DNA from: an uncultured delta proteobacterium
GTDB taxonomy: Bacteria > Desulfobacterota > Binatia > JACPRU01
Reading direction: 5' to 3'
Assembly (NCBI GenBank): GCA_963790365.1
Contig: CAWBOU010000043.1
Span: 12,732 to 76,731, forward strand
Length of the DNA stretch: 64,000 nt
Position 1 is the stretch's first letter. Every line of letters begins with the position of its first letter. Shown here in pieces: positions 12,681-33,418 of this stretch. Made by a program: the position numbers and the translations under genes. Below the pieces are notes generated by a model that saw only the letters and a list, made by a program, of their open reading frames with translations, was not told the origin of the DNA and searched no databases.

Positions 12681-15600
12681 GTGGAGTTCGAATCCATCGT
12701 CTTCCCGCCCTTTCGACTCGAGCCGGGAAATGCGCGGCTTTGGCGCGGCTCGGAGATCGTTCCGCTTCGGGGCAAGACGTTCGGCGTGCTTCGCTACCTC
12801 GTCGAACGGCACGATCAGCTGGTCACGCGTGACGAGCTTCTGAGCGCGCTTTGGCCCGACACGCACGGCGCCGAGGCGCTCCCGCGCGGGTGCATTCACG
12901 AGCTTCGTGAGGTGCTCGAGGACGACACCGCCCGCCCCCGCTTCATCGAGACCGTCGGCCGGCGCCAGGGCTACCGCTTCATCGCACCCGTGACGACGAA
13001 CACGTACGTCGATGCTAGGCCCCGACCCCGTGCCAAACGGGTGACCGTCGCGACTCGCGTCGCTTCAGTGCAACGCCAACCGTTGGTCGTCGGCCGTACT
13101 GCCGAGTTCGCGCGCCTCGACGCGGCGTTCGAACGAGCACTCGACGGCGAGCGCCGGCTCGTCTTCGTGACGGGGGAGCCCGGAATCGGCAAGACCACCC
13201 TGGTCGATACGTTTCTCGGGCGGCTCCGGAGGGACCATGACGTCTGGAGCGGCTGGGGCCAGTGCGTCGAGCAGTACGGGGCGGGCGAAGCCTACTTACC
13301 CGTCCTCGAGGCGCTCGGTCGACTCTGCCGCAGCGCCGATGGCGAGCGCGTGATCGCTCTCCTCGATCGCCACGCCCCAATGTGGCTGATGCAGATGCCC
13401 GCGCTACTCGACTCGCAGCGGGCGGAGGACCTCCGGCGCCGGGTGCAAGGCGGCAATCCCGAGCGGATGGTTCGTGAGCTGTCCGACGGCCTGGACGCCC
13501 TCGCCGCGGAAAAGCCGTTGGTACTGGTGATCGAGGATCTCCAGTGGAGCGACTACTCGACCGTCGACCTCGTCGCCGCGCTGGCATCGCGAAGAGAATC
13601 TGCGCGGCTTCTGTTCATCGCGACGTATCGACCGGCGGACGTCGTCGTGAGCCGGCATCCGGTGAGAGTCGTGAAGCAGCAACTGCAAGCGCGCGGGAAG
13701 TGTGAAGACGTCCTGCTCGGATCGCTGAACGCAGCCGAGGTAGGTCACTATTTGACGATTCGTTTCGCGGGCAACCGATTTCCGCAGGAGCTCGACCGTG
13801 CGATCTACGGCAACACGGATGGGAACCCGCTCTTCGTCGTGAATCTCTTGGACTATCTCGTCGCGACCGGCGGGATCCGCGAAGCGGACGGTCTATGGCG
13901 GGTGACGGGCGACATTCATGATGTCGTCAAGCGCGTTCCGGACACCCTGCGCGCGTTGATCGAGGCGCAGATCGATCGTTTGTCCGAACCGGAGAAACAC
14001 CTTCTCGAGGCCGGGAGCCTCGCGGGAGACGAGTATTCTTCCCTCCATCTCGCGGCACTGCTCGGCGAACCCGCCGAGACGATCGAAGATCGATGTGACG
14101 AACTGACCCGCCGAAGCCAGTTCATTCGAGCGCTCGGGCCACTCGCGCTGCCGGATGGATCCACGGGCGCGCGCTACGGCTTTCTCCACACGCTCTACCA
14201 GAAAGTTTTCTACGAGCGCATGTCGGCTACGCGTCGGGCGCGGCTTCATCGGAGGTTTGCCGCGGAGCTCGAGCGGCGGCACGCGAACCGAACGGATGAG
14301 ATCGCAGCCGAGCTGGCGATCCATTTCGAGCGGGGAGGCGAGGAAGCGCGCGCGGTTCACTATGTCGCGAAAGCGGCGCAGAACGCGAATCGACGCGGCG
14401 CGCTCCGCGAGGCCATGGGTCATCGTGCGAAGGGATTGCGACTTCTCGAAGCACTCCCTCAGGGAGCGTGGCGTGCAGACCTCGAGCTCACGCTCGAAGT
14501 CGACGCCTACGACGCGATGTACTTCGCCGAGGGCGGCGTCGGCGTGGGCGCGGAAGCCGAAGGGATTCTGGCCCGCGCGTTGACGCTATCCCGTCAAGCG
14601 AGTCAGACGCGCGCTCTGGCACTCACGCTGATGCGACTGGCATTCGTCCATCTTTGGCGCGGAGATTTCGCCGGCGCCGAAAAGCTCGTGGATCAACTCG
14701 TGACCGTGGCGCAGCGGAGGCGCGATCCTCTGCAGCTCGCGATCGCGCATGGAATGGCGGCGACCGTATCTCTGTTTCGCGGCGACCTGCGGTCGTCATG
14801 TGGGCGATTCGAACAGTGCCTCGCTCAGTATCGTCGGGCCGAGCATGACGTCGCCGAACCCATGCACGACAACGTTTTGATCTTCGTTGCCTTCTCCGCG
14901 TTTCCTTTGTGGTTCCTCGGGCGCGCCGATCGATCGCGGCACAGATTCGATGAAGCCCTGACGTTGTTGGCAGGCCGTACCGGCTCGATCCTCGCAATCC
15001 TTCACCACACCCTGCTGCACTACCTCCGTCGGGAGACCGAAATGGCTCGGTCCTCCCTGCGGGCGGTGATCTCGCGCGCCACCGAGGACACGCTCGCTTC
15101 CTTCTGGATCAACAATTTGCGGTTTTGGTTGCTCGACGAAGGGGGCGCGAAGGAAGGCGGCATCGCGCGATTTCGTCAGCAGCTGGTTTCCGAGAATCAG
15201 ACGTGGCGGTCGCTCTTCGTATGCATCGCCGCCGAAAAGCTCGCGCAGCGCGGCCGTCTCGAGGAAGCGATCGCGTTGGTCGCGGAGGACCTGGGCTCGG
15301 TCCCGAAGCGAGGCGATCGCTGGTGCCTCGCCGAGCTCTACCGGGTCCAGGGTGAGCTGATGCTCAAGCGGGCAAGGCAGCTCGAGAAAAAACTCAAACG
15401 AAGCGGGCCGAAGCGGCCCCGACCGTCTGCCATTGAACACCTCGAGTTGAGGGCCGAAGAGTCGGTTCGGCGCGCAATCGTTGTCGCGCGACGGCAGAGT
15501 GCCAAATCATTGGAGCTGCGGGCCGCGATCAGCCTGAGCCGCCTGCTCCGAAGCAAGGGCAAGAGCTCGGCGGCTCGTCGAATGCTCTCGCGCATTCATG

Positions 15601-23177: not shown

Positions 23178-23194
23178 CCGGATCGCCGGACGCT

Positions 23195-23227
23195 AACGGA
23201 AAGCGAACGAAAACCCAACGGGTTCTC
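23195..23227 (+). promoter_or_regulatory. Three 11-bp-periodic AACG-core repeats in the divergent regulator/operon spacer
   Basis: AACG at 23195, 23206 and 23217 (AACGGAAAGCG, AACGAAAACCC, AACGGGTTCTC). Confidence 0.5.
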
Positions 23228-23270
23228 ACTTCCGGCCGGCGCTCGCGAAGGCGTAGGGTCCGCGCCACTC

Positions 23271-24092
23271 ATGAAGAACCACGACAGCGACGTCGCGATC
23301 GGCGACGGGCTTTCGATCCACTCCGTCGAGCGCGGCAGCGGCGCGCCCGTCGTTTTCCTTCACGGCGGGGGGCCCGGTGCGAGCGGCATCAGCAACTGGC
23401 GCGCGAACCTCGACGCCTTCGCCGACGCAGGCTTCCGCGCGATCGCGCCGGACGCGCTCGGCTACGGCCGTTCGAGCAAGCCCGAGGACGCGACCTTCGA
23501 CGGCAAGTTCCTCGTCGGCGGCTTGCGACGCTTTCTCGATGCTCTGGGTATCGAGCGCGCGTCGTTCGTCGGCAACGCGATGGGCGGATCGATGGCGCTC
23601 CAGCTCGCGCAGGAATCGCCGGAGCGAGTGGAGAAGCTCGTCGTCATGGCGCCGGGTGGGATCGGCGACGTCGCCCGCTACCTGGCGATGCCGGTCATCC
23701 AGGTGATGCTCCGCGTGGCGCGGGATCCCGACGGGCCGACGCGCGCGGGTCTCCGCGAGCTCTTCGAAGCGCTCGTCTCGGACCGTGGCCTCGTCACCGA
23801 CGAGCTCGTCGAGGAGCGCTTCGCGGTCGCGGCCACACAGCCGAAGCGCGTGCTCGCGACGCTTCGCTTCGACGACCTCGTGCCGGGCCTCGGCAAGCTC
23901 CGGGTGCCGCTCCTCGCGCTCTGGGGGCGCGACGACCGCGCGGTTCCGCTCGAGGCCGGTCTCGACATCCTGCGTGCGTGCGACACCGCGCGGCTCATCG
24001 CCTTCGCGAACTGCGGCCACTGGCTGCACGCTGAGCGTGCGGCGATCTTCAACCAGACGTGCGTGAGCTTTCTGAAGGAGGTTTCTCGATGA
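23271..24092 (+). CDS. Meta-cleavage-product (BphD/MhpC-like) hydrolase homologue with Ala at the nucleophile position
   Basis: LHGGGPGASG.SNW, DALGYGRSSKP, GNAMGG in place of GNSMGG, WGRDDRAVP, CGHW. Confidence 0.8.
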   Translation: MKNHDSDVAIGDGLSIHSVERGSGAPVVFLHGGGPGASGISNWRANLDAFADAGFRAIAPDALGYGRSSKPEDATFDGKFLVGGLRRFLDALGIERASFVGNAMGGSMALQLAQESPERVEKLVVMAPGGIGDVARYLAMPVIQVMLRVARDPDGPTRAGLRELFEALVSDRGLVTDELVEERFAVAATQPKRVLATLRFDDLVPGLGKLRVPLLALWGRDDRAVPLEAGLDILRACDTARLIAFANCGHWLHAERAAIFNQTCVSFLKEVSR

Positions 24093-24835
24093 CTGCCGAA
24101 ACGTTTCTGGAAGACCTGCGCGCTTACATCCGCGCGCAAGACGAGAAGCCGCTCCTCGGGGTGAATTTCTACGAGGGCGTCATCGGCGGGAAGCTCTCGC
24201 GCGAGCAGCTGAAGCACTGGGCGCTCAACATGTTCTATGTCTCCGGGCAGCACATCCGTGCGTTCGGCGGGATCTTCCTGAACACGGGGCTCGCGCCGCT
24301 CGACTGCCGGATCCGCCAGCACATCGTCGAGAACCTGATCGACGAGGAGACGAATCAGGGGCGTGGCGACGAGCCGCACTGGAAGCTCGCGGCGCGGCTC
24401 GCACGCGCGCTCGGCGCGACCGACGAAGAGCTGATGAACCCACGTGTGTCGAAGGAATCCGTCGAGTACGTCGAGTGGGTGATCGAGCTCGGGCGCCGCG
24501 AGTACGGCGCTGTCACGCTCGCGGCGATGTCGATCGGCGGCGAGACGCGCACCGACAAGGGAGTCGGCCAGATGCTGCAGGCGCTCCGCGATCACTACGG
24601 GCTCAGCCGCGAGGCGCTCGAGTTCTTCTACGCGCACATCGGCGAGGCGGAGGCGCACGGCGACCCCGTTTTCGACATGGTCCGCGAGTGGGCGACGACC
24701 GACGAGCGCCAGCAACGGATCCGGGATGAAGTGCAGACCTGGTGCAAGAAGTTCGCGGCCTCGGCCGACGGCGTCTTGCGCGTCGCGATGGGGGTCGATC
24801 CCGGCGTGCAGGTGCGTCTCGGGCCGACGGTTTAG
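24089..24835 (+). CDS. Heme-oxygenase-like diiron enzyme (PqqC/CADD/TenA-like iron-containing redox family)
   Basis: All-helical 248-aa protein with ENLIDEE-x9-H, GGE, and LEFFYAHIGEAEAH ligand-like motifs; ATGA overlap with the hydrolase. Confidence 0.72.
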   Translation: MTAETFLEDLRAYIRAQDEKPLLGVNFYEGVIGGKLSREQLKHWALNMFYVSGQHIRAFGGIFLNTGLAPLDCRIRQHIVENLIDEETNQGRGDEPHWKLAARLARALGATDEELMNPRVSKESVEYVEWVIELGRREYGAVTLAAMSIGGETRTDKGVGQMLQALRDHYGLSREALEFFYAHIGEAEAHGDPVFDMVREWATTDERQQRIRDEVQTWCKKFAASADGVLRVAMGVDPGVQVRLGPTV

Positions 24836-24837
24836 GC

Positions 24838-26319
24838 ATGGGAGCTCGAACCGGACGGCAGTACGTCGAGCGACTCCGCGACGATCGTCGCCTGTTCGCG
24901 AACGGCGCGCTCGTTCGGGACGTGACGGAGCATCGCCCGTTCCATGGCATCATCCGCACGCTCGCCGACCTCTACGATCGCCACCACGACCCCGCCGTAC
25001 GAAATGTGCTCACCTATCGCTCGCCGTCGACCGGCGACCGCGTGAGCACCTCGTTCCTGCAGGCGAAGAGCTGGCCGGAGGTCGAGCACCGCGTTGCCGG
25101 CGAGCGCGCCCGCGCCGAGGCGACGTACGGATTCATGGGCCGGCTGCCGGACTTCATGAACGCATTCGTCACGGAAGCGGCGATGCTCCGCTCGTTCCTC
25201 GGCCAGCGCGAGCGCGCGTTCGGCGACAACGCCGTCGGCTACTACGAGAAGGTGCGCGAGGAGGATCTCTGCCTCACGCACGCGCTCGCCGATCCGCTGA
25301 TCGACCGCTCGAAAGGCATCGAGGAGCAGGACGCTGTTCGCGTGGTGAAGGAAACCGATGCCGGGATCGTCGTCCGCGGCGCGCGCATGCTGTCGACGCT
25401 CGCGCCGGTCGCGCACGAGATCTGGGTCGGGCCGTACATGCCGCGCCGGCCGGGCGAAGAGGACTACGCGCTCTGCTTCGCGCTGCCGATGGCGACGCCC
25501 GGGCTCACGCTCCTCTGTCGCGAGTCCTACGACGCGGGGCGGAGCTCCTACGACCGGCCGCTCAGCGGGCGCTTTGACGAAGGCGATGCGATCGCCGTCT
25601 TCAAGGACGTGCTGGTGCCGTGGGAGCGCGTGTTCGCGCTCCGCGATATCGAGATCTACAACGCGTTCCTGCCGTCGACCGCCGGCTATATCAGCCTTCA
25701 GGCGGTCATCCGCAGCGCGACGAAGCTCCGGTTCCTGACCGGTCTCGCCAACGTCGTGGCCGACACGCTCGGGCGATCGGCAATGCCGCGCTATCAGGAG
25801 ATGATCGGCGAGCTCGTCGGCTTCGTCGAGATGGCCGACGGTTTCGTCACGGCCTCTGCTCACGATGCGCTGTTCAACGCGCAGCGTCTGCTCGGCGCGG
25901 ACCCGTCGCTCGCGACACCGCTCAGCGGCAACGGCCGGAGCTCCCTCGCGGCGGCCGCTGCGATCCGCCTCTTCTTCCCCGAAGCGATCAGCAAGGCGAT
26001 CCATGCGCTTCGCCTGCTCGGCAGCAGCGGCCTCGTGATGACGCCCTCGGAGGCGGACTTCGCGAATCCGGACGCGCACGAGATCCTGCAGCGGCATCTC
26101 CGCGGCCGCGACATCACGGCCGAAGAGCGCGTACGCGTGATGAAGCTCGCCTGGGATACGGTCGCAACCGAGTTCGCCGGGCGCCAGCTTCTCTACGAGT
26201 GGTTCTACGCCGGCGACCCGGTGACGAACCGGATGGGCTTCTGGATGGACCCGCGGCGCGAGGAATGCACGGCGCTCGCGCGCGGCCTGATCGACTCGCT
26301 CAAGGAAGCGCGGTCGTGA
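24838..26319 (+). CDS. HpaB-family (group D) two-component flavin monooxygenase, oxygenase subunit
   Basis: MGARTGRQYVERLRDDR, GFMGRLPDFMN, THALADPLIDRS, GIVVRGARMLST, RFDEGDAIAVFKDVLVPWERVF, KLAWD..FAGRQLLYEWFYAGDP. Confidence 0.88.
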   Translation: MGARTGRQYVERLRDDRRLFANGALVRDVTEHRPFHGIIRTLADLYDRHHDPAVRNVLTYRSPSTGDRVSTSFLQAKSWPEVEHRVAGERARAEATYGFMGRLPDFMNAFVTEAAMLRSFLGQRERAFGDNAVGYYEKVREEDLCLTHALADPLIDRSKGIEEQDAVRVVKETDAGIVVRGARMLSTLAPVAHEIWVGPYMPRRPGEEDYALCFALPMATPGLTLLCRESYDAGRSSYDRPLSGRFDEGDAIAVFKDVLVPWERVFALRDIEIYNAFLPSTAGYISLQAVIRSATKLRFLTGLANVVADTLGRSAMPRYQEMIGELVGFVEMADGFVTASAHDALFNAQRLLGADPSLATPLSGNGRSSLAAAAAIRLFFPEAISKAIHALRLLGSSGLVMTPSEADFANPDAHEILQRHLRGRDITAEERVRVMKLAWDTVATEFAGRQLLYEWFYAGDPVTNRMGFWMDPRREECTALARGLIDSLKEARS

Positions 26320-27200
26320 CCGGCGTCACGGAGCTCGGCTACCTCGGCTTCGGCGTCCGCGACATCCGGGCCTTCGGCCACTTTGCGACCGAGGTCCTCG
26401 GCCTCGAGCCGAACGGCGCGGACGAAGACGGCGGGCTCTTCTTCCGCATGGACGCGCACCATCATCGCTTCATCGTCCGCGAATCCGACGCGGACGACGT
26501 GGCGTTCATCGGCTGGGAGGTCGCGAACGAGCGGGCGCTCGGCGAGCTCGGCGAGCGGCTCGCCGCCGGAGGCACCGCGGTCGTGCGCGCCGACGCGGCC
26601 GACGCGAAGAAGCGACGCGTGGCCGGGCTCCTCCGCTTCGCCGACCCGAACGGCGTCGCCTGCGAGGCTTTCTTCGGCGCGCGCGTCTTGACCGACAGGC
26701 CGTTCCTCTCGCCGCGCCCGATCTCCGGCTTCAAGACCGGCGAGCTCGGGATGGGCCATCTCGTGCTCCTCGCGGACGACTTCGAGAAGACGCAACGTTT
26801 CTACTGCGACGTGCTCGGCTTTCGCGTGACCGACTTCATTCATTTTCCGGCTGCGCCCGGAGTCGTGGTCGACATCGGCTTCCTGCACTGCAACCCGCGA
26901 CACCACACGCTCGCATTCATCGCCATGCCGAATCCGCCGAAGCGCATGCATCACTTCATGCTGCAGCTCCGCTCACTCGACGACGTCGGGCTCACGTACT
27001 CGCTCTGCCAGGAGCGCGGCGTACCGATCGTCTCGACGCTCGGCCGTCACACGAACGACCAGATGGTCTCGTTCTACGCCGCCACTCCGGCCGGCTTCGC
27101 CGTCGAATACGGCTGGGGTGCGCGCGATGTCGACGATGCGACGTGGCGCGTGCAGACCTACGACGCCGGCTCGATCTGGGGCCACAACCCTCCGGCTTAG
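26316..27200 (+). CDS. Type I extradiol ring-cleavage dioxygenase (BphC/HsaC/NahC-like VOC family)
   Basis: GTG start overlapping the upstream stop. VTELGYLG, RMDAHHHR, GMGHLVL, CNPRHHT, MHHFMLQ, LGRHTNDQMVSFY, VEYGWG supply the His/His/Glu metal ligands. Confidence 0.92.
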   Translation: MTGVTELGYLGFGVRDIRAFGHFATEVLGLEPNGADEDGGLFFRMDAHHHRFIVRESDADDVAFIGWEVANERALGELGERLAAGGTAVVRADAADAKKRRVAGLLRFADPNGVACEAFFGARVLTDRPFLSPRPISGFKTGELGMGHLVLLADDFEKTQRFYCDVLGFRVTDFIHFPAAPGVVVDIGFLHCNPRHHTLAFIAMPNPPKRMHHFMLQLRSLDDVGLTYSLCQERGVPIVSTLGRHTNDQMVSFYAATPAGFAVEYGWGARDVDDATWRVQTYDAGSIWGHNPPA

Positions 27201-29525
27201 ATGCTGCGACGCATTCTCTTCTCGGCTGCCATGCTCGCCGCGCTACCCGCTTGGGCGCAGTCGCCGCCGCATTCGATCGAGGAGGTCGTCGTCACCGCGC
27301 AGCGCCGAAGCGAGAACCTCCAGGACGTTCCCGTCGCGGTCACGGCGTTCACGGAGAACGTGATCGAGCAGCGCGACTTCGACTCGGTCGAAGATATCGA
27401 GCACTCCGTCCCCGGTTTCGTCTACGCGCACGTCGTCGGCACCACGCAGCCGACGCTCCGCGGCGTCGGGAGCGACCTCTACACCGCGGCCGGCGAGCCC
27501 GGCGTCGCGCTCTACGTCGACGACATCTACCTCGGCCGCACGTATCTACCGCAGGCCGCGCTCGGTGACGTCGAGCGCATCGAGGTCCTGCGCGGACCGC
27601 AGGGGACGCTCTACGGGCGAAACACCTCGGGCGGCGCGCTCAAGTTCGTCACCCGGCGCCCGCCGGACGAGCTCGATGTGCGCGCGAGCTTCCAGTACGG
27701 CTCCTTCGACCAGCTCCTCGGCAAAGCGTCGATCGGCGGACCGATCCTCGCGGAGATGCTGAAAGCGACGGCGTCGTTCGTCGGTGAAGATCGCGACGGG
27801 TGGCTGACGAACCTGAACACCGGCGAGAACCTCGAAGGACGCGAGCTCTGGTCGGGCCGTGCGGCGATGGACTTCGATCCGCTCGACTGGCTCGGCCTCA
27901 GCATCACGGGGGACGTCACGCGTCAGGAGGACGACGGCCCGCAGCCGCGCTACGTGCGTCCCGCGGTCGGCAACCTCGTGAGCGATTCGGCGGCCTCGCC
28001 GTTGTTCCGGCCGTACGACACCATCATCAAATCGATCGAAGACCAGTTCGCCATCGTGCTCGATCCGATCCGCGACCGCGTGCTCGCGGAGATCGCGGGC
28101 GGGCGCTTCTCCCCGGATCCGCGCGAGGTCTACACGGACTTCCCGCCCCACACGAAGATCGACAGCGAGGGCATCTCGGCCACGCTCAGAGGGACGTTCG
28201 GGCCGGTCGACGCGAAGCTCATCGGCGGCTGGCGGAACAGCAAGCGGAAACACAACTTCGACGCCGACGGCAGCGATCAGCCGCTCATCCACATGCACAA
28301 GTTCGACGATCGCGGCGAGCAGACGAGCGTCGAGCTCCACCTCTCCTCCGAAGGGGATCTCCCGTTCGGCCTCGGGCGCGGCCGTGTGCTCGGCGGCTTC
28401 TACTACTACGACGAGGACGCGAGTCAGTTGATCGACATCGCACTCTTGACGCTCGCGCCGAACGAGCTCGCCCCGCTGGCGGCGCTGATTCCGCCGAACG
28501 TGCCGGTCCTTCAGAACCCGGGTCTCTTCGCGCTCGTCTACGACGCCGAGCTCGACACGCGCTCCTACGCCGGGTTCGGGGAGGGCGAATGGGACGTGCT
28601 CGAGTGGCTGACCCTGCGCGCGGGCGGACGTTACACGCTCGACGAGAAGAGCGCCGTGCTCGCCTCGATCAACCCGTCCGTCACGGATGCGTGCCCGCCG
28701 ACGGCCTTCGAGGAATCCTTCAGCGCGTTCACCGGCAAAGTCGGCGCCGACGTGCGGATCGACGACGAGCGGATGGTGTACGCGTCGTTCAGCCAGGGCT
28801 TCAAGGCGGGCGGCTTCACGAACGCCGGCTGCAACGGCACGCCGTACGATCCCGAGCGCATCGACGCGTACGAGATCGGCTTCAAGAGCCAGTGGCTCGA
28901 GCGACGGCTGCGGCTGAACGTGGCGGCGTACTACTACTCCTTCCGCGACATCCAGGTGCAGCAGGCCGCGGGGCTCGTCTCGATCGTCGTCAACGCGGCC
29001 GAGGCCGAGATCAAGGGCGTCGAGGTCGAGATGCAGGCGCGGCCGTTCGACGGGATCGCGTTCCTCGACGGCTTCTCGCTCGACGGCTCGGCGACATGGC
29101 TCGACGCCAAGTACACGGACTACGTCGACGACGAACAGCTCACGCTCTTCGAAGGCGACATCGACCTATCCGGCAATCGCCTGCCGAAGGCTCCGGAGTG
29201 GTCGGGCACCGTCGGCGTGCAATACGACGCGCCGGTCGCGTCGTACGGTGAGGCAACGGCGCGCGTCGACTGGAGCTATCGCGGGCAGCAGTACTTCGAT
29301 CAGTTCAACCGCGACTTCAACGGCCAGGCCGCGTACGACCTGTGGAACGCGTTCCTCGGCTTCGAGCACGCGAGCGGGTACGGCGGCTTCCGCGGCTTCG
29401 TGAAGAATATCGAGGACGAATCCTACCTGCAGGGCGGCCTGATCACGTCGTTCATCATCGGCGCGCCGTCGAACTTCTATGCGGCGCCGCGGACGTGGGG
29501 TATCGAGGCGTACGTCCGCTTCTGA
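27201..29525 (+). CDS. TonB-dependent outer-membrane receptor
   Basis: Signal peptide, IEEVVVTAQRRSENLQDVP, ERIEVLRGPQGTLYGRN, and terminal PRTWGIEAYVRF. Confidence 0.93.
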   Translation: MLRRILFSAAMLAALPAWAQSPPHSIEEVVVTAQRRSENLQDVPVAVTAFTENVIEQRDFDSVEDIEHSVPGFVYAHVVGTTQPTLRGVGSDLYTAAGEPGVALYVDDIYLGRTYLPQAALGDVERIEVLRGPQGTLYGRNTSGGALKFVTRRPPDELDVRASFQYGSFDQLLGKASIGGPILAEMLKATASFVGEDRDGWLTNLNTGENLEGRELWSGRAAMDFDPLDWLGLSITGDVTRQEDDGPQPRYVRPAVGNLVSDSAASPLFRPYDTIIKSIEDQFAIVLDPIRDRVLAEIAGGRFSPDPREVYTDFPPHTKIDSEGISATLRGTFGPVDAKLIGGWRNSKRKHNFDADGSDQPLIHMHKFDDRGEQTSVELHLSSEGDLPFGLGRGRVLGGFYYYDEDASQLIDIALLTLAPNELAPLAALIPPNVPVLQNPGLFALVYDAELDTRSYAGFGEGEWDVLEWLTLRAGGRYTLDEKSAVLASINPSVTDACPPTAFEESFSAFTGKVGADVRIDDERMVYASFSQGFKAGGFTNAGCNGTPYDPERIDAYEIGFKSQWLERRLRLNVAAYYYSFRDIQVQQAAGLVSIVVNAAEAEIKGVEVEMQARPFDGIAFLDGFSLDGSATWLDAKYTDYVDDEQLTLFEGDIDLSGNRLPKAPEWSGTVGVQYDAPVASYGEATARVDWSYRGQQYFDQFNRDFNGQAAYDLWNAFLGFEHASGYGGFRGFVKNIEDESYLQGGLITSFIIGAPSNFYAAPRTWGIEAYVRF

Positions 29526-31216
29526 TGGATACGGCCGAAGCCTACCTCGCCCTTCTCGCCGACCGCGGCATCCGATGGATGTTCGGCAACGGCGGCACCG
29601 ACTTCGCGCCGATCGTCGAAGCGCTCGTGCGCATGCAGGCGCGCGGCGCGGCGTTCCCGCAGCCGATCACCGTGCCCCACGAGCAGGTCGCCGCGAGCAT
29701 GGCGCACGGCGCGGCGATGGTGAGCGGCGAGCCGCAGCTCGTCATGGCGCACGTGACCGTCGGCACCGCGAACCTCCTGAACGGCATCATCAATGCCAGC
29801 CGTTCGAACGCGCCGATCCTCTTCACCGCGGGCCGCTCACCGATCACCGAGCGCGGTCTCCGCGGCTCGCGCGATCTCCACATCCATTGGTCGCAGGAAG
29901 CGTTCGACCAGGGCGCGATGGTGCGCGAGTGGGTGAAGTGGGACTACGAGCTCCGCAACGCGACGCAGCTCGAGACCGTCGTCGACCGCGCGCTGGCGCT
30001 CTGCTCGGCGGAGCCGCGCGGACCGGTCTATCTGACGCTGCCGCGCGAGGTGCTCGCGACGGAGATCGAGAACCGGACGTTCTCGCAGCGCCGCGCGACC
30101 GTCGGCGCCGCGCTCGAGCATCCGCGTCCGGCCGGCGTCGCCGAAGCGGCCGAAGCGATCCGTCGCGCGCGGAATCCGCTGATCGTGACGTCCGCGGCGG
30201 GGCGTGATCCCGCAGCCGTCGCCGCGCTCGTCGCGCTCGCGGAGCTCGCGGCGATTTCCGTCGTCGAGCCGGGCCGCACGTTCGTGAATTTCCCGACGAC
30301 CCATCCGCTGCACTCCGGCTTCGATTCGAATGCGCTCGTCGCCGAGGCCGACGTCGTCCTCGTCGTCGAGGCGGACGTGCCGTGGATTCCGGTACGCGCG
30401 GAGCCGCGCGCCGACGCGACCGTGATCCATCTCGGCGTCGATCCGCAGCACACGCGCTATCCGATCTGGGGATTTCGAACCGACGTCGCGATCACGGCGG
30501 CGCCCGCGGCCGGCCTGCGAGCGCTCGCGGAGGAGCTCCGCGAGCGGCCGGCGCTCGATCCGGCGGCGATCGAGGAGCGGCGTGCCACGGCGACGGCCCG
30601 ACACGAGAGCGCGCGACGCGCCGCGCGCGAGGGCGCCGTGGCGCGCGCGAGCGCGAGCCCCGTCGACTTCGCCTGGCTCGCATCGGCGATCGGCCAGGTC
30701 CTCGACGACGAGACGATCTGCATCAACGAATACGACCTGCTGCCGCAGTTTCTCGATTTCGCGCGGCCCGGCTCGTACTTCGGCTATCCACCTTCGGGCG
30801 GCCTCGGCTGGGGCCTCGGCGCCGCGCTCGGCGCCAAGCTCGCCGCGCCCGACAAGACGGTCGTCTGCTGCGTCGGTGACGGCTCCTACCTCTTCGGCGA
30901 GCCGCTCGCGGCGCACTGGGTCTCGCGCGCGCAGAGCCTACCGGTGCTCTTCGTCGTCTTCAACAACGAGGCGTGGAACGCCGTGCGAGCCTCGACGCTC
31001 ATGGTCTACCCGGAGGGCGCCACGCGAGACGCAGCCTCGACACCGTTCTCCGATCTCCGCCCGCAGGGACGCTTCGACCAGGTGGTCGCCGCCTTCGGCG
31101 GGCACGGCGAACGGGTCGAGCACGGCGTGGACGTGCTCCCCGCCCTGCGGCGCGCGCTCCGCGTCGTCCGCGAAGAAGGGCGCCAGGCGCTGCTCGACGT
31201 GAGCTGCGCGCGTTAG
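29525..31216 (+). CDS. Thiamine-diphosphate-dependent enzyme (benzoylformate-decarboxylase/acetolactate-synthase-like family)
   Basis: FGNGGTDFAP, PHEQVA, GDGSYLF-x-NN ThDP motif; TGATG overlap with the receptor gene. Confidence 0.88.
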   Translation: MDTAEAYLALLADRGIRWMFGNGGTDFAPIVEALVRMQARGAAFPQPITVPHEQVAASMAHGAAMVSGEPQLVMAHVTVGTANLLNGIINASRSNAPILFTAGRSPITERGLRGSRDLHIHWSQEAFDQGAMVREWVKWDYELRNATQLETVVDRALALCSAEPRGPVYLTLPREVLATEIENRTFSQRRATVGAALEHPRPAGVAEAAEAIRRARNPLIVTSAAGRDPAAVAALVALAELAAISVVEPGRTFVNFPTTHPLHSGFDSNALVAEADVVLVVEADVPWIPVRAEPRADATVIHLGVDPQHTRYPIWGFRTDVAITAAPAAGLRALAEELRERPALDPAAIEERRATATARHESARRAAREGAVARASASPVDFAWLASAIGQVLDDETICINEYDLLPQFLDFARPGSYFGYPPSGGLGWGLGAALGAKLAAPDKTVVCCVGDGSYLFGEPLAAHWVSRAQSLPVLFVVFNNEAWNAVRASTLMVYPEGATRDAASTPFSDLRPQGRFDQVVAAFGGHGERVEHGVDVLPALRRALRVVREEGRQALLDVSCAR

Positions 31217-31226
31217 CCCACGCCGT

Positions 31227-32006
31227 CTACGCCGAGAACCGCCGGAAGAACTCCGTCGCCGCGGCGTCGAACGCTTCCGGAGCCTCGAGATTGACGGCGT
31301 GCCCGGCGTCGAGGCCGACGACCTCGAGCGCGGGCATCGTGCGCTCCGCGTGCTCGCGATGGGGCGCGAAGCGCTTCTCGTGATGTCCGAAGACGAGGAG
31401 CGTCGGCACGCGGTTCTCCCCGACTCGGTCGCGGACGCTCGATTCCGGGAGCATGTGTCGCCAGATGCGCGCGACCGCGCCGGGATCGACGAGCGCCGCG
31501 TCCTCGAGGATCGCGCGCTTCACGTCCGGCGCGAGGCGCTTGGCGCGAAGCGGATGGATCGGGAGCTTCTCGAGCCCTTCCCGTCCGCCCGCGGCGATCG
31601 CCGCGGACATCGTCTCCGCGGTGGCGAGCGTTGCCTTCGTCCACGCCTCGTCGGCGAGCGCCGAAACGGAGTTCGTGAAGACATGCGCGATCAGGCGATC
31701 GGGATGATCGAGCGCGTAGCGAAGCGTCAGCGCCGCGCCGAGCGAGGCGCCGCAGACGAGCCAACGCTCGACGCCGAGCTCGCGGCGGATCTCTTCGAAG
31801 AGGCGGACGGCGGTGCTCGGTCGATAGAGCTCGGGGTCCTCCGGCGCGGGCGACCGCCCGTGCCCCCAGAGCTCGACGACGACCGGGCGACAAACCCGGC
31901 GCAAAGAAGAAAGATTGGGCGCCCACTGCGCGCGGCCGGAGAGCATGCCGTGCACGAGGAGGAGCGGCGGCCCCTCGCCCGCGTGGACGTCGTGGTGGAA
32001 TCTCAG
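31227..32006 (-). CDS. Alpha/beta-fold hydrolase (apparent CTG start)
   Basis: GEGPPLLLVHG, ELWGHGRS, GASLG, AGHAVNLE. The domain begins right at the ALDH stop with a CTGA overlap. Confidence 0.75.
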   Translation of the reverse strand: MRFHHDVHAGEGPPLLLVHGMLSGRAQWAPNLSSLRRVCRPVVVELWGHGRSPAPEDPELYRPSTAVRLFEEIRRELGVERWLVCGASLGAALTLRYALDHPDRLIAHVFTNSVSALADEAWTKATLATAETMSAAIAAGGREGLEKLPIHPLRAKRLAPDVKRAILEDAALVDPGAVARIWRHMLPESSVRDRVGENRVPTLLVFGHHEKRFAPHREHAERTMPALEVVGLDAGHAVNLEAPEAFDAAATEFFRRFSA

Positions 32007-33418
32007 AGCTTGATCGTCACGCACTTGAGCTGCGTGTAGTGGTGCAGCGCCTCGAGGCCCTTCTCGCGCCCGTAGCCGCTCATCTTGTAGCCGCCGAACG
32101 GAGTCTCGACGCCGCCGGCCATCCACTCGTTCACGAAGATCTGTCCGGCTTCGAGCCGCGCGGCGACGCGGTGCGCGCGCGAGAGATCGCGCGTCCAGAT
32201 GCCGGCGACGAGCCCGTACTCGGAGTCGTTCGCGATCCGCACCGCCTCGTCCTCGTCGCCGAACGGGATCGCAACGACCACCGGGCCGAAGATCTCCTCG
32301 CGCGCGAGGCGCGAATCGTTCGTCACGCCGGAATAGATCGTCGGGGAGACGTACCAGCCGCGGCCGAGGTCCGTCGGCAGCTCGCCGCCGACGACCGCTT
32401 TCAACCCCTCGTCCTTCGCGACCGCGTAGTAGTCCTGCACCTTCTGGTATTGCGCCTCGGTCGTCACCGGGCCGAGCGCCTTGCCGGGCTTCGACACCGT
32501 CTGCGGCGACGGGCGAGCGCAGCGACGAACGAGTCGTGGATCTCGCGCTGAAGGAGAAGCCGCGTGCCGCAGCTGCAGACCTGCCCGGGTTGATCACGAA
32601 CGCGCGGAGCGAGCCGACGACCGCCGCTTCCATGTCGGCATCGGCGAAGACGAGGTTCGGCGATTTGCCACCGAGCTCGAGCGTGAGCGGCAGGATCCGA
32701 TCGGCGGCGATCCGCGAGATCTCCTTCCCCGCGCGCACCGAGCCGGTGAACGCGACCTTGCGCACGTCCGGATGCTCGACGAGCGCCTGGCCCGCCTCGC
32801 GCCCGGTGCCGGTGACGACGTTGAAGACGCCGGCGGGAACGCCGCAATCGATCGCCATCCGCGCGAGCGCGAGACACGTCGCCGAGGTGAACTCCGACGG
32901 CTTCGCGACCGCGACGTTGCCGGCGGCGAGCGCGGGCGCGACGGCGCGCGCCGCCTGGTTCATCGGCGCGTTCCACGGCAGGATCACGCCGACGACGCCG
33001 TAAGGCTCGCGGCGCGTGTACGAGTGGTATGCGGCGCCGAGGTCGATCGTGTCGCCCTGGATCGCGTTCACGAGCCCGCCGTAGAGCTCGAAGTACTGCG
33101 CCGCGACCTCGATCTCGCCCATCGCCTGCATTTGCGGCTTGCCGGTCTCGCCCTGCTCGAGCGCGACGAGCTCGCTCATCCGCTCGCGCATGCGGCGCGC
33201 GATCTCGAGGAGGATCCGCCCGCGCTCGATCGGACGCCGATCGCGCCACGCGGGGAACGCGCCCTTCGCCGATTCGACCGCGGCGGCGACGTCCGCGGCG
33301 TTCCCGCGCGCGACGGACCGGCGACCTCGCCGGTCGTCGGGTTCTTGGTTTCGACGTACTGCCCGGAGCGCGGCGCCACCGAAGCGCCGGCGATGAAGTG
33401 GTCCTGCGGCTCGCTCAT
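32003..33418 (-). pseudogene. NAD-dependent aldehyde dehydrogenase with about 3 frameshifts (possibly sequencing indels)
   Basis: Pieces in successive frames: MSEPQDHFIAG, PWNAP..KPSE..FTGS..LELGGKSP, GQVCSCGTR, EEIFGPV..PFGGYKMSGYGREKG. Frame changes near 33325, 32590 and 32510. Confidence 0.85.

Follow-up and report, generated by a model that had tools for sequence, protein, structure and literature searches.

A predicted aromatic meta-cleavage operon with an unusual gene set in a narrow lineage of uncultured Binatia

Layout and conservation of the six-gene unit

The locus described here lies in a window of 64,000 nucleotides (the whole stretch of DNA analysed; positions 12,732 to 76,731 of contig CAWBOU010000043.1, assembly GCA_963790365.1) from an uncultured delta proteobacterium of the class Binatia. 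Positions 23271–31216 of its plus strand hold six uninterrupted co-directional open reading frames, which encode, in this order, a hydrolase of BphD/HsaD type whose nucleophile position is occupied by Ala, a heme-oxygenase-like dimetal protein (HDO), an HpaB-like oxygenase, a BphC-like dioxygenase, a TonB-dependent receptor and a thiamine diphosphate (ThDP)-dependent enzyme (Table 1). Judged from sequence, the unit is an aromatic meta-cleavage operon whose gene set none of the closest known systems has, and it is so far confined to a narrow uncultured lineage. A common catabolic pair, HpaB and BphC, is joined here to four other genes.

Each frame is free of stop codons and aligns over its full length to homologues, and successive genes overlap by 1–4 nt or are separated by 0–2 nt. 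The DNA reads ATGA at the hydrolase/HDO junction (4-nt overlap, 24089–24092), TAG gc ATG between HDO and HpaB (24833–24840, with a 2-nt gap at 24836–24837), GTGA between HpaB and BphC (4-nt overlap, 26316–26319) and TGATG between the receptor and the ThDP enzyme (1-nt overlap, 29525), while BphC and the receptor abut with a 0-nt gap (27200/27201). The G+C content of the window is high (0.64–0.72). Its contig (C43) belongs to a 4.6-Mb metagenome-assembled genome (MAG) that is 65.8% complete.

The regulator and the gene order recur on two independent metagenome contigs, and the arrangement is therefore not a product of chance. On a forest-soil contig from ENA (L021), whose end falls inside the receptor gene, identity to the window amounts to 91% for the hydrolase, 92–93% for the HDO, 93% for HpaB and 95% for BphC. 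On a 13-kb JGI contig the operon ends with a ThDP enzyme that is 85% identical. Between the window and L021, synonymous divergence (dS) is 0.24–0.35 and dN/dS is 0.09–0.21 for every comparable gene, and the six-gene unit therefore appears to be maintained by selection. The full combination is represented by three instances (85–100% identity) from one narrow lineage; a search of genome contigs with the HDO returned a single Binatia MAG, in which the cluster is not found.

Most of what an initial annotation of this DNA had read from the letters stands. All six gene identities are borne out by Pfam and NCBIfam profiles and the tight coupling by the junctions; the STAND-type regulator it had described is divergent from the operon and kept with it in both relatives. 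The gene order in its title is not that of the DNA, on which the operon opens with the hydrolase and continues with the HDO. It had also remarked that the operon lacks an HpaC-type flavin reductase, and this is correct: none of the genes in the operon or window region matches Flavin_Reduct (PF01613), and the sole match in the assembly lies on another contig (C8). The initial annotation had further made its proposal depend on conservation of the HDO and ThDP genes with the ring-cleavage genes, which is found only within the one narrow lineage; its interpretation is thus upheld in part. As it had supposed, no characterised pathway with this gene set turned up in the literature, and the literature likewise yielded nothing on an HDO together with HpaB or on natural Ser-less meta-cleavage hydrolases. 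Homologues of the hydratase, aldolase and acetaldehyde dehydrogenase of the lower pathway are absent from the operon and from the recovered 66% of the genome, which is weak evidence since the MAG is incomplete.

Table 1. Features of the operon and its immediate surroundings (positions in the window).
Feature	Position	Strand	Domains or basis
Divergent regulator, 984 aa	20223..23177	-	Trans_reg_C + AAA_16, TPR-like C-terminal part
Divergent intergenic region, 93 bp, probable promoter/operator (inferred)	23178..23270		AACG cores, ~11-bp spacing
BphD/HsaD-like alpha/beta-fold protein, 273 aa, Ala103 (GNAMGG)	23271..24092	+	Abhydrolase_1
HDO / PqqC / CADD-like protein, 248 aa	24089..24835	+	PF14518
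HpaB-family flavin-dependent phenol monooxygenase, oxygenase component, 493 aa	24838..26319	+	HpaB_N + HpaB
BphC-like two-domain type I extradiol dioxygenase, 294 aa	26316..27200	+	BphC_D1 + Glyoxalase; TIGR03213
TonB-dependent outer-membrane receptor, 774 aa	27201..29525	+	Plug + TonB_dep_Rec_b-barrel
ThDP-dependent enzyme, NF006203/PRK08327 family, 563 aa	29525..31216	+	NF006203, TPP_enzyme N/M/C
Ser-containing alpha/beta hydrolase (GASLG), convergent, probably outside operon	31227..32012	-	Abhydrolase_1
Aldehyde dehydrogenase reading frame, convergent, three frame changes	32003..33418	-	Three-frame translation

Sequence features of the encoded proteins

The HpaB-like protein scores 289 bits with the Pfam domain HpaB_N and 155 bits with HpaB, and does not reach the equivalog TIGR02309 (368 bits, cut-off 480). 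When aligned with Thermus thermophilus HpaB (E 1.6e-86), it keeps the equivalents of Arg100 (MGRLPD) and His142 (THAL), which bind and activate the phenol, while Tyr104 is replaced by Phe and the carboxylate-binding pair Ser197/Thr198 by Tyr-Met. Since these carboxylate-binding residues are missing, 4-hydroxyphenylacetate is not the expected substrate, and the protein is predicted to be an HpaB-family phenol hydroxylase for another substrate and not a 4-hydroxyphenylacetate hydroxylase. The BphC-like protein combines BphC_D1 and Glyoxalase, the two VOC domains of type I extradiol dioxygenases, and aligns over its full length with BphC of strain LB400 (1han; E 2e-85). Here, the Fe ligands His146/His210/Glu260 and the catalytic residues His195/Asp244/Tyr250 (LB400 numbering) are all identical, and the aligned motifs include GMGH/GLGH, MHHFML/IHHFML, VEYGW, RHHTLA, TND and SFYA. 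Because it misses the equivalog TIGR03213 narrowly, by about 5 bits (361.1 against 366.45), it is classed here as a BphC-like protein and the name biphenyl-2,3-diol dioxygenase is not applied to it.

Orthologues of HpaB (55–63% identity) are widespread, and a BphC orthologue (50–57%) lies within 3 kb in six of the ten loci examined. These HpaB+BphC operons also encode the alpha and beta subunits of a Rieske dioxygenase and a short-chain (dihydrodiol) dehydrogenase. Beyond the narrow lineage, only HpaB and BphC remain together, normally in such Rieske-dioxygenase operons. A typical Binatia aromatic operon, seen in L035 (5484–11775) and L036 (9465–16669), comprises BphC, Rieske alpha/beta subunits, a short-chain dehydrogenase, HpaB and a DHDPS-like protein, and is the likely source of the pair in the window.

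The product of the first gene has the alpha/beta fold (Pfam Abhydrolase_1/6) and the dienoate-binding residues of C–C hydrolases, and reaches neither the HsaD equivalog of NCBIfam (192 bits, cut-off 400) nor that of BphD (190 bits, cut-off 462). Its nucleophile elbow reads GNAMGG, with Ala103 encoded by GCG at 23577–23579; the Ser-His-Asp triad is thus incomplete, and the triad His (CGHW) and Asp (GRDD) are retained. The best PDB matches are the BphD chains 2rht and 2puh (E 2e-51), which read VGNAMGG at this site and are the S112A variant of BphD, used for trapping substrate. Gly41–43, Asn51, Asn111, Arg190, Asp237, His265 and Trp266 of these chains are aligned and identical. BphD S112A is reported to bind HOPDA as the 2,6-dioxo tautomer (Horsman et al. 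2007). A BphD fold without its nucleophile cannot form the acyl-enzyme needed for C–C hydrolysis.

Ala occupies the nucleophile position in three of 121 homologues (the window and its relatives at 91% and 80% identity), and Ser in the other 118. The Ala clade furthermore shares the exchanges A107S, G142V, F224A and G229A; conservation at these sites reaches 90% or more among the 118 remaining homologues, and F224A sits two residues past the catalytic Asp. The exchange S103A is paired with the reverse exchange A107S four residues on, about one helical turn away (23571–23591), at a position where all 118 others have Ala. The dN/dS of the gene (0.21, window against L021) is close to the values of its neighbours. 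Ala at the nucleophile position is a recent, fixed change. A sequencing error behind Ala103 was considered and rejected, given that L021 also has GCG and the third sequence (80%) has Ala. The nearest Ser-type relatives (61–65%) belong to canonical operons that also encode a hydratase, an acetaldehyde dehydrogenase and an HOA aldolase, or are encoded together with a Rieske dioxygenase.

The ThDP enzyme exceeds the threshold of NF006203 (668.5 bits, cut-off 456). Its TPP_enzyme N, M and C domains are recognised by Pfam, and the GDGSYLF...FNNEAWN motif and the activating Glu (PHEQ) can be read in the translation. The closest solved relatives are benzoylformate decarboxylases (E 4e-32). A literature search for NF006203/PRK08327 turned up no paper and no characterised member, and of the candidates scored, 7,332 proteins from soil metagenomes match at E<=1e-60. 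Eight of 251 Binatia genomes contain homologues with 48% identity or more, none near HpaB or BphC/ring-cleavage genes; outside the window lineage, the genes are solitary or belong to other clusters for aromatic acids. In Rokubacteria, a 58% identical homologue is part of a cluster with IclR, UbiD, Amidohydro_2 and a TRAP transporter, resembling those for the catabolism of aromatic acids.

The HDO matches Haem_oxygenas_2 (PF14518, 62.8 bits) and, weakly, TENA, and remains below the cut-offs of TIGR04305 (CADD; 68 bits against 200) and TIGR02111 (PqqC; 39 bits against 240). Its AlphaFold2 model (pLDDT 88.8) is a seven-helix heme-oxygenase-like bundle, for which Foldseek returns PqqC, CADD, UndA, FlcD and BesC with probability 1.0 and TM values of 0.66–0.73. 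All 38 orthologues have E86, E87, H97, E152, H183, E186 and H190. Of the six ligand positions of CADD, five show no variation; at the sixth, that of the third-helix carboxylate, every orthologue has Ala (Ala187), placed between the invariant E186 and E188 (37 of 38).

Two other functions suggested by this fold were examined and set aside. Heme uptake by a TonB receptor and a heme oxygenase is countered by the lack of a PF01126 match, by the predicted dimetal-type ligands of the HDO and by the Foldseek ranking, where canonical heme oxygenases first appear at rank 29 and below. A p-aminobenzoate synthase of the CADD type was brought up by the best PDB match (9pj4, a CADD homologue) and by an AbgT transporter beside one orthologue. 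The CADD enzyme employs a sacrificial Tyr27 and Lys152 (PMC13108848). Of the 38 orthologues, 22 have Tyr and 15 have Phe at the Tyr position, and the Lys position is Met when compared with 9pj4; since these residues are not conserved, this function was rejected. The statement of the initial annotation that known HDOs act mainly in biosynthesis agrees with a 2026 review, which lists only natural-product and p-aminobenzoate biosynthesis as HDO roles and describes enzymes acting mostly on amino- or fatty-acid side chains (PMC13108848).

HDO orthologues (59–70% identity) occur in 32 of the 251 class genomes, almost all in one other family, and the gene is therefore not a housekeeping gene, a further point against a p-aminobenzoate synthase. 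Among 28 orthologue loci examined, 17 have the type of 64–70% identity, and in 15 of them a 563-aa Amidohydro_3 gene comes next. The two form a conserved uncharacterised pair, often with a family III CoA-transferase nearby (L001, L014–L016, L020, L047–L049, L052–L057). The type of 59–63% identity adjoins an F420-dependent LLM oxidoreductase of TIGR03619 (L018, L062–L065) and, in L063–L065, also a regulator with an OmpR-type winged helix, AAA and TPR parts that is about 29–30% identical to that of the window. The idea that the HDO is a constant partner of two-component flavin monooxygenases is weakened by these F420-dependent neighbours. Outside the window lineage, HpaB adjoins an HDO orthologue in only two contexts (L017 and L028/L060). 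On another Binatia contig, L022 (3642–6200), the genes after a canonical lower meta-pathway encode an additional hydrolase, an extradiol dioxygenase and a remotely related TENA/Haem_oxygenas_2 protein (22%), a second and independent case of a heme-oxygenase-like protein beside ring-cleavage genes.

The divergent regulator consists of an N-terminal OmpR-type winged helix (Trans_reg_C, 58.6 bits), an AAA_16 (STAND) ATPase (90.6 bits) and a long TPR-like tail, and has a dN/dS of 0.16 between the window and L021. The assembly holds two paralogues (38–39% identity), one of them inside the window. The 93-bp spacer between regulator and operon shows no match to the sigma-70 consensus; AACG cores at a spacing of about 11 bp (23190–23225) fit a tandem winged-helix operator. 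The TonB receptor matches Plug (57.8 bits) and TonB_dep_Rec_b-barrel (161 bits), and its translation shows a signal peptide, a TonB-box-like stretch (EEVVVTA) and a C-terminal Phe. It occupies the identical operon position in both relatives and reaches no substrate-specific model of NCBIfam, the best being a siderophore-receptor subfamily (168 bits, cut-off 223.5). A receptor is not a siderophore signal here because the genome encodes dozens of TonB-receptor paralogues.

Downstream, the convergent hydrolase bears a weak likeness to MenH/PcaD and is not conserved in the JGI relative. At this place, the 85% identical relative has a gene for a 327-aa NMO/IMPDH-family (FMN) protein, 13 nt downstream of the ThDP gene and on the same strand (JGI 3300078620 / 3300071358); the gene was seen on a smaller second JGI contig that carries an identical ThDP protein. 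The aldehyde dehydrogenase frame is readable only with frame changes near 33315, 32582 and 32510. Other genes of the MAG also give split-frame tblastn matches (contigs C46, C52, C57), which makes indels in the assembly and a true pseudogene equally likely. A link of the aldehyde dehydrogenase to the operon can only be inferred, and the convergent genes for aldehyde dehydrogenase, CoA-transferase and acyl-CoA dehydrogenase are not conserved with it.

A proposed route and its alternatives

The favoured reading, to which we assign a probability of about 0.5, is that of a catabolic operon for a TonB-imported phenolic compound whose ring-cleavage product is handled non-hydrolytically, by ketonisation and subsequent ThDP-dependent decarboxylation, with tailoring by the HDO. 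The compound would enter through the operon's own receptor, and the divergent regulator with its OmpR-type winged helix, STAND and TPR parts would switch the operon on. The HpaB oxygenase, supplied with reduced flavin by an unlinked reductase, would hydroxylate the phenol ortho to its hydroxyl group and yield a 3-substituted (biphenyl-type) catechol, which the BphC-like Fe(II) dioxygenase would convert into a 2-hydroxy-6-oxo-dienoate. The Ser-less hydrolase would bind this ring-opened product without the usual C–C cleavage and probably ketonise it or hold its 2-oxo-acid tautomer. The 2,6-dioxo tautomer is a 2-oxo acid and so falls into the substrate class of ThDP enzymes resembling benzoylformate decarboxylase. 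The ThDP enzyme may then decarboxylate this 2-oxo acid, in a non-oxidative counterpart to the oxidative decarboxylation of the oestrogen 4,5-seco pathway. The resulting aldehyde could pass to unlinked enzymes, for which the convergent aldehyde dehydrogenase, CoA-transferase and acyl-CoA dehydrogenase are candidates. The HDO would carry out an O2-dependent tailoring of the substrate or an intermediate at a step that cannot be read from its sequence; it may remove a side chain oxidatively before HpaB acts or perform an oxidative cleavage after ring opening. Ketonisation and decarboxylation are favoured because of the 2-oxo-acid tautomer and of the precedent from Sphingomonas sp. KC8, where ThDP-type decarboxylation of the meta-cleavage product replaces hydrolysis in the oestrogen 4,5-seco pathway (PMC7264893). 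A more specific version is unlikely, namely that a natural S112A-like BphD serves as a ketonising tautomerase or carrier feeding the ThDP decarboxylase, combined with the first catabolic HDO, possibly one performing oxidative C–C scission.

Several points weigh against the favoured route. Strong homology stands behind import, phenol hydroxylation and ring cleavage, whereas the later steps are predictions. The lower pathway and the flavin reductase may simply be unrecovered in a MAG that lacks about a third of its genome, and the Ala variant may have residual general-base hydrolase activity. The model of the HDO has low confidence just past the first pair of ligand Glu residues (86–92), and the surroundings of the ThDP homologues in other Binatia tell little. 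Since the HDO and ThDP genes are linked to the ring-cleavage genes in one narrow lineage only, they may have joined recently as passengers, or their products may work on a side chain; for the ThDP enzyme, decarboxylation of the ring-cleavage product and side-chain trimming are equally plausible. An ordinary meta-cleavage operon with additions, the version of the initial annotation, is a possible, if doubtful, alternative. Hydroxylation, cleavage and hydrolysis would be canonical, with an Ala variant that either uses general-base attack by water or works slowly. Before these steps, a side chain of the imported compound would be trimmed or oxidised by the HDO and the ThDP enzyme, for example one of amino-acid or 2-oxo-acid type, comparable to UndA, BesC, SktA and benzoylformate decarboxylase. 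The side-chain preference of characterised HDOs (PMC13108848) fits such a scheme, as do the aryl-glyoxylate decarboxylases that are the closest solved relatives of the ThDP enzyme, the three independent contexts in which HDO orthologues adjoin HpaB (the window, L017 and L028/L060) and the usual HDO neighbour, an amidohydrolase able in principle to release an amino acid. It is harder to reconcile with the Ser kept in all other hydrolase homologues, with the coordinated active-site changes of the Ala clade under purifying selection, and with an operon and recovered genome devoid of a hydratase, aldolase or acetaldehyde dehydrogenase for the hydrolysis product.

A biosynthetic or cofactor/siderophore-type cluster, in which a ring-cleaved or catechol-derived molecule is made and the molecule or its metal complex re-imported through the TonB receptor, is improbable. 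Every characterised HDO is biosynthetic (PMC13108848), siderophore clusters commonly include TonB receptors, the best NCBIfam match of the receptor is the sub-threshold siderophore subfamily, and secondary metabolism is often controlled by STAND/SARP-like regulators. However, no nonribosomal peptide synthetase, polyketide synthase, ligase, exporter or other scaffold-building gene lies in or beside the operon; BphC scores just short of the equivalog of a catabolic enzyme, the HpaB and BphC orthologues stem from Rieske-dioxygenase catabolic operons, and the abundance of receptor paralogues deprives the receptor of diagnostic value. There is equally little chance that the unit is a recent and partly decayed shuffle, in which the Ser-less hydrolase is a non-functional remnant and its juxtaposition with the HDO and ThDP genes means nothing for a pathway. 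The restriction of the combination to one narrow lineage and the thrice-broken frame of the neighbouring aldehyde dehydrogenase would be expected from such a history, but the hydrolase has a dN/dS near that of its neighbours, Ala is kept down to 80% identity, and the exact coupling of starts and stops through six genes is conserved in the relatives.

Meta-cleavage pathways belong to textbook chemistry, with an almost invariant sequel of hydrolase, hydratase and aldolase. If the non-hydrolytic route is correct, a selected Ser-less hydrolase and a ThDP enzyme would open another way out of the ring-cleavage product, one hinted at until now only in oestrogen degradation, and the ThDP family, uncharacterised and very large (over 7,000 close relatives from soil metagenomes), would obtain a first function. 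A catabolic HDO would furthermore widen the scope of a superfamily now known only from biosynthesis, and the uncultured Binatia, an abundant group of forest soils, would gain a concrete, testable role in the turnover of aromatic or lignin-derived carbon.

Comparison with known systems

The oestrogen 4,5-seco pathway (OecB/OecC and a 2-oxoacid oxidoreductase; PMC7264893) has phenolic hydroxylation and extradiol cleavage in common with the route proposed for the window, and in both the C1 of the 2-oxo-acid product would be removed by a ThDP-type enzyme. The 4,5-seco enzyme is an oxidative decarboxylase from the indolepyruvate-ferredoxin-oxidoreductase family that yields a CoA ester, whereas the window encodes NF006203, with the fold of benzoylformate decarboxylase and acetolactate synthase, and nothing marks its substrate as a steroid. 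The HDO shares the heme-oxygenase fold with CADD, UndA, BesC, SznF, AetD and PqqC, and the predicted Glu/His ligand positions are invariant in its family. It differs in its last motif, H-x2-E-A-E-x-H instead of H-x3-D-x2-H, in the non-conserved sacrificial Tyr and Lys of CADD, and in gene contexts that look catabolic in contrast to the biosynthetic contexts of the known enzymes.

TonB-dependent uptake of lignin-derived aromatics is known from DdvT of Sphingobium sp. SYK-6. DdvT is likewise a receptor dedicated to aromatic catabolism, a likeness of role; in the window, the gene for the receptor is itself part of the enzyme operon and stands between those for the dioxygenase and the ThDP enzyme. 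With the engineered BphD S112A (PDB 2PUH/2RHT), the hydrolase homologue shares the local sequence VGNAMGG, the oxyanion loop and Asn111, Arg190, Asp237, His265 and Trp266. Unlike that variant, it is natural, under purifying selection and about 40% identical overall, and only its clade carries A107S, G142V, F224A and G229A.

The biphenyl/alkylphenol meta-cleavage modules (BphC and BphD of Paraburkholderia xenovorans LB400; the two-component phenol hydroxylase and extradiol dioxygenase AphAB/AphC of Rhodococcus) combine phenol hydroxylation and extradiol cleavage with an adjacent BphD-fold protein that has dienoate-binding residues, and these features are common to the window. In contrast to these modules, the BphD homologue of the window has no Ser, and genes for a hydratase, aldolase, acetaldehyde dehydrogenase and reductase are missing, while the translationally coupled unit additionally contains genes for an HDO, a TonB receptor and a ThDP enzyme.

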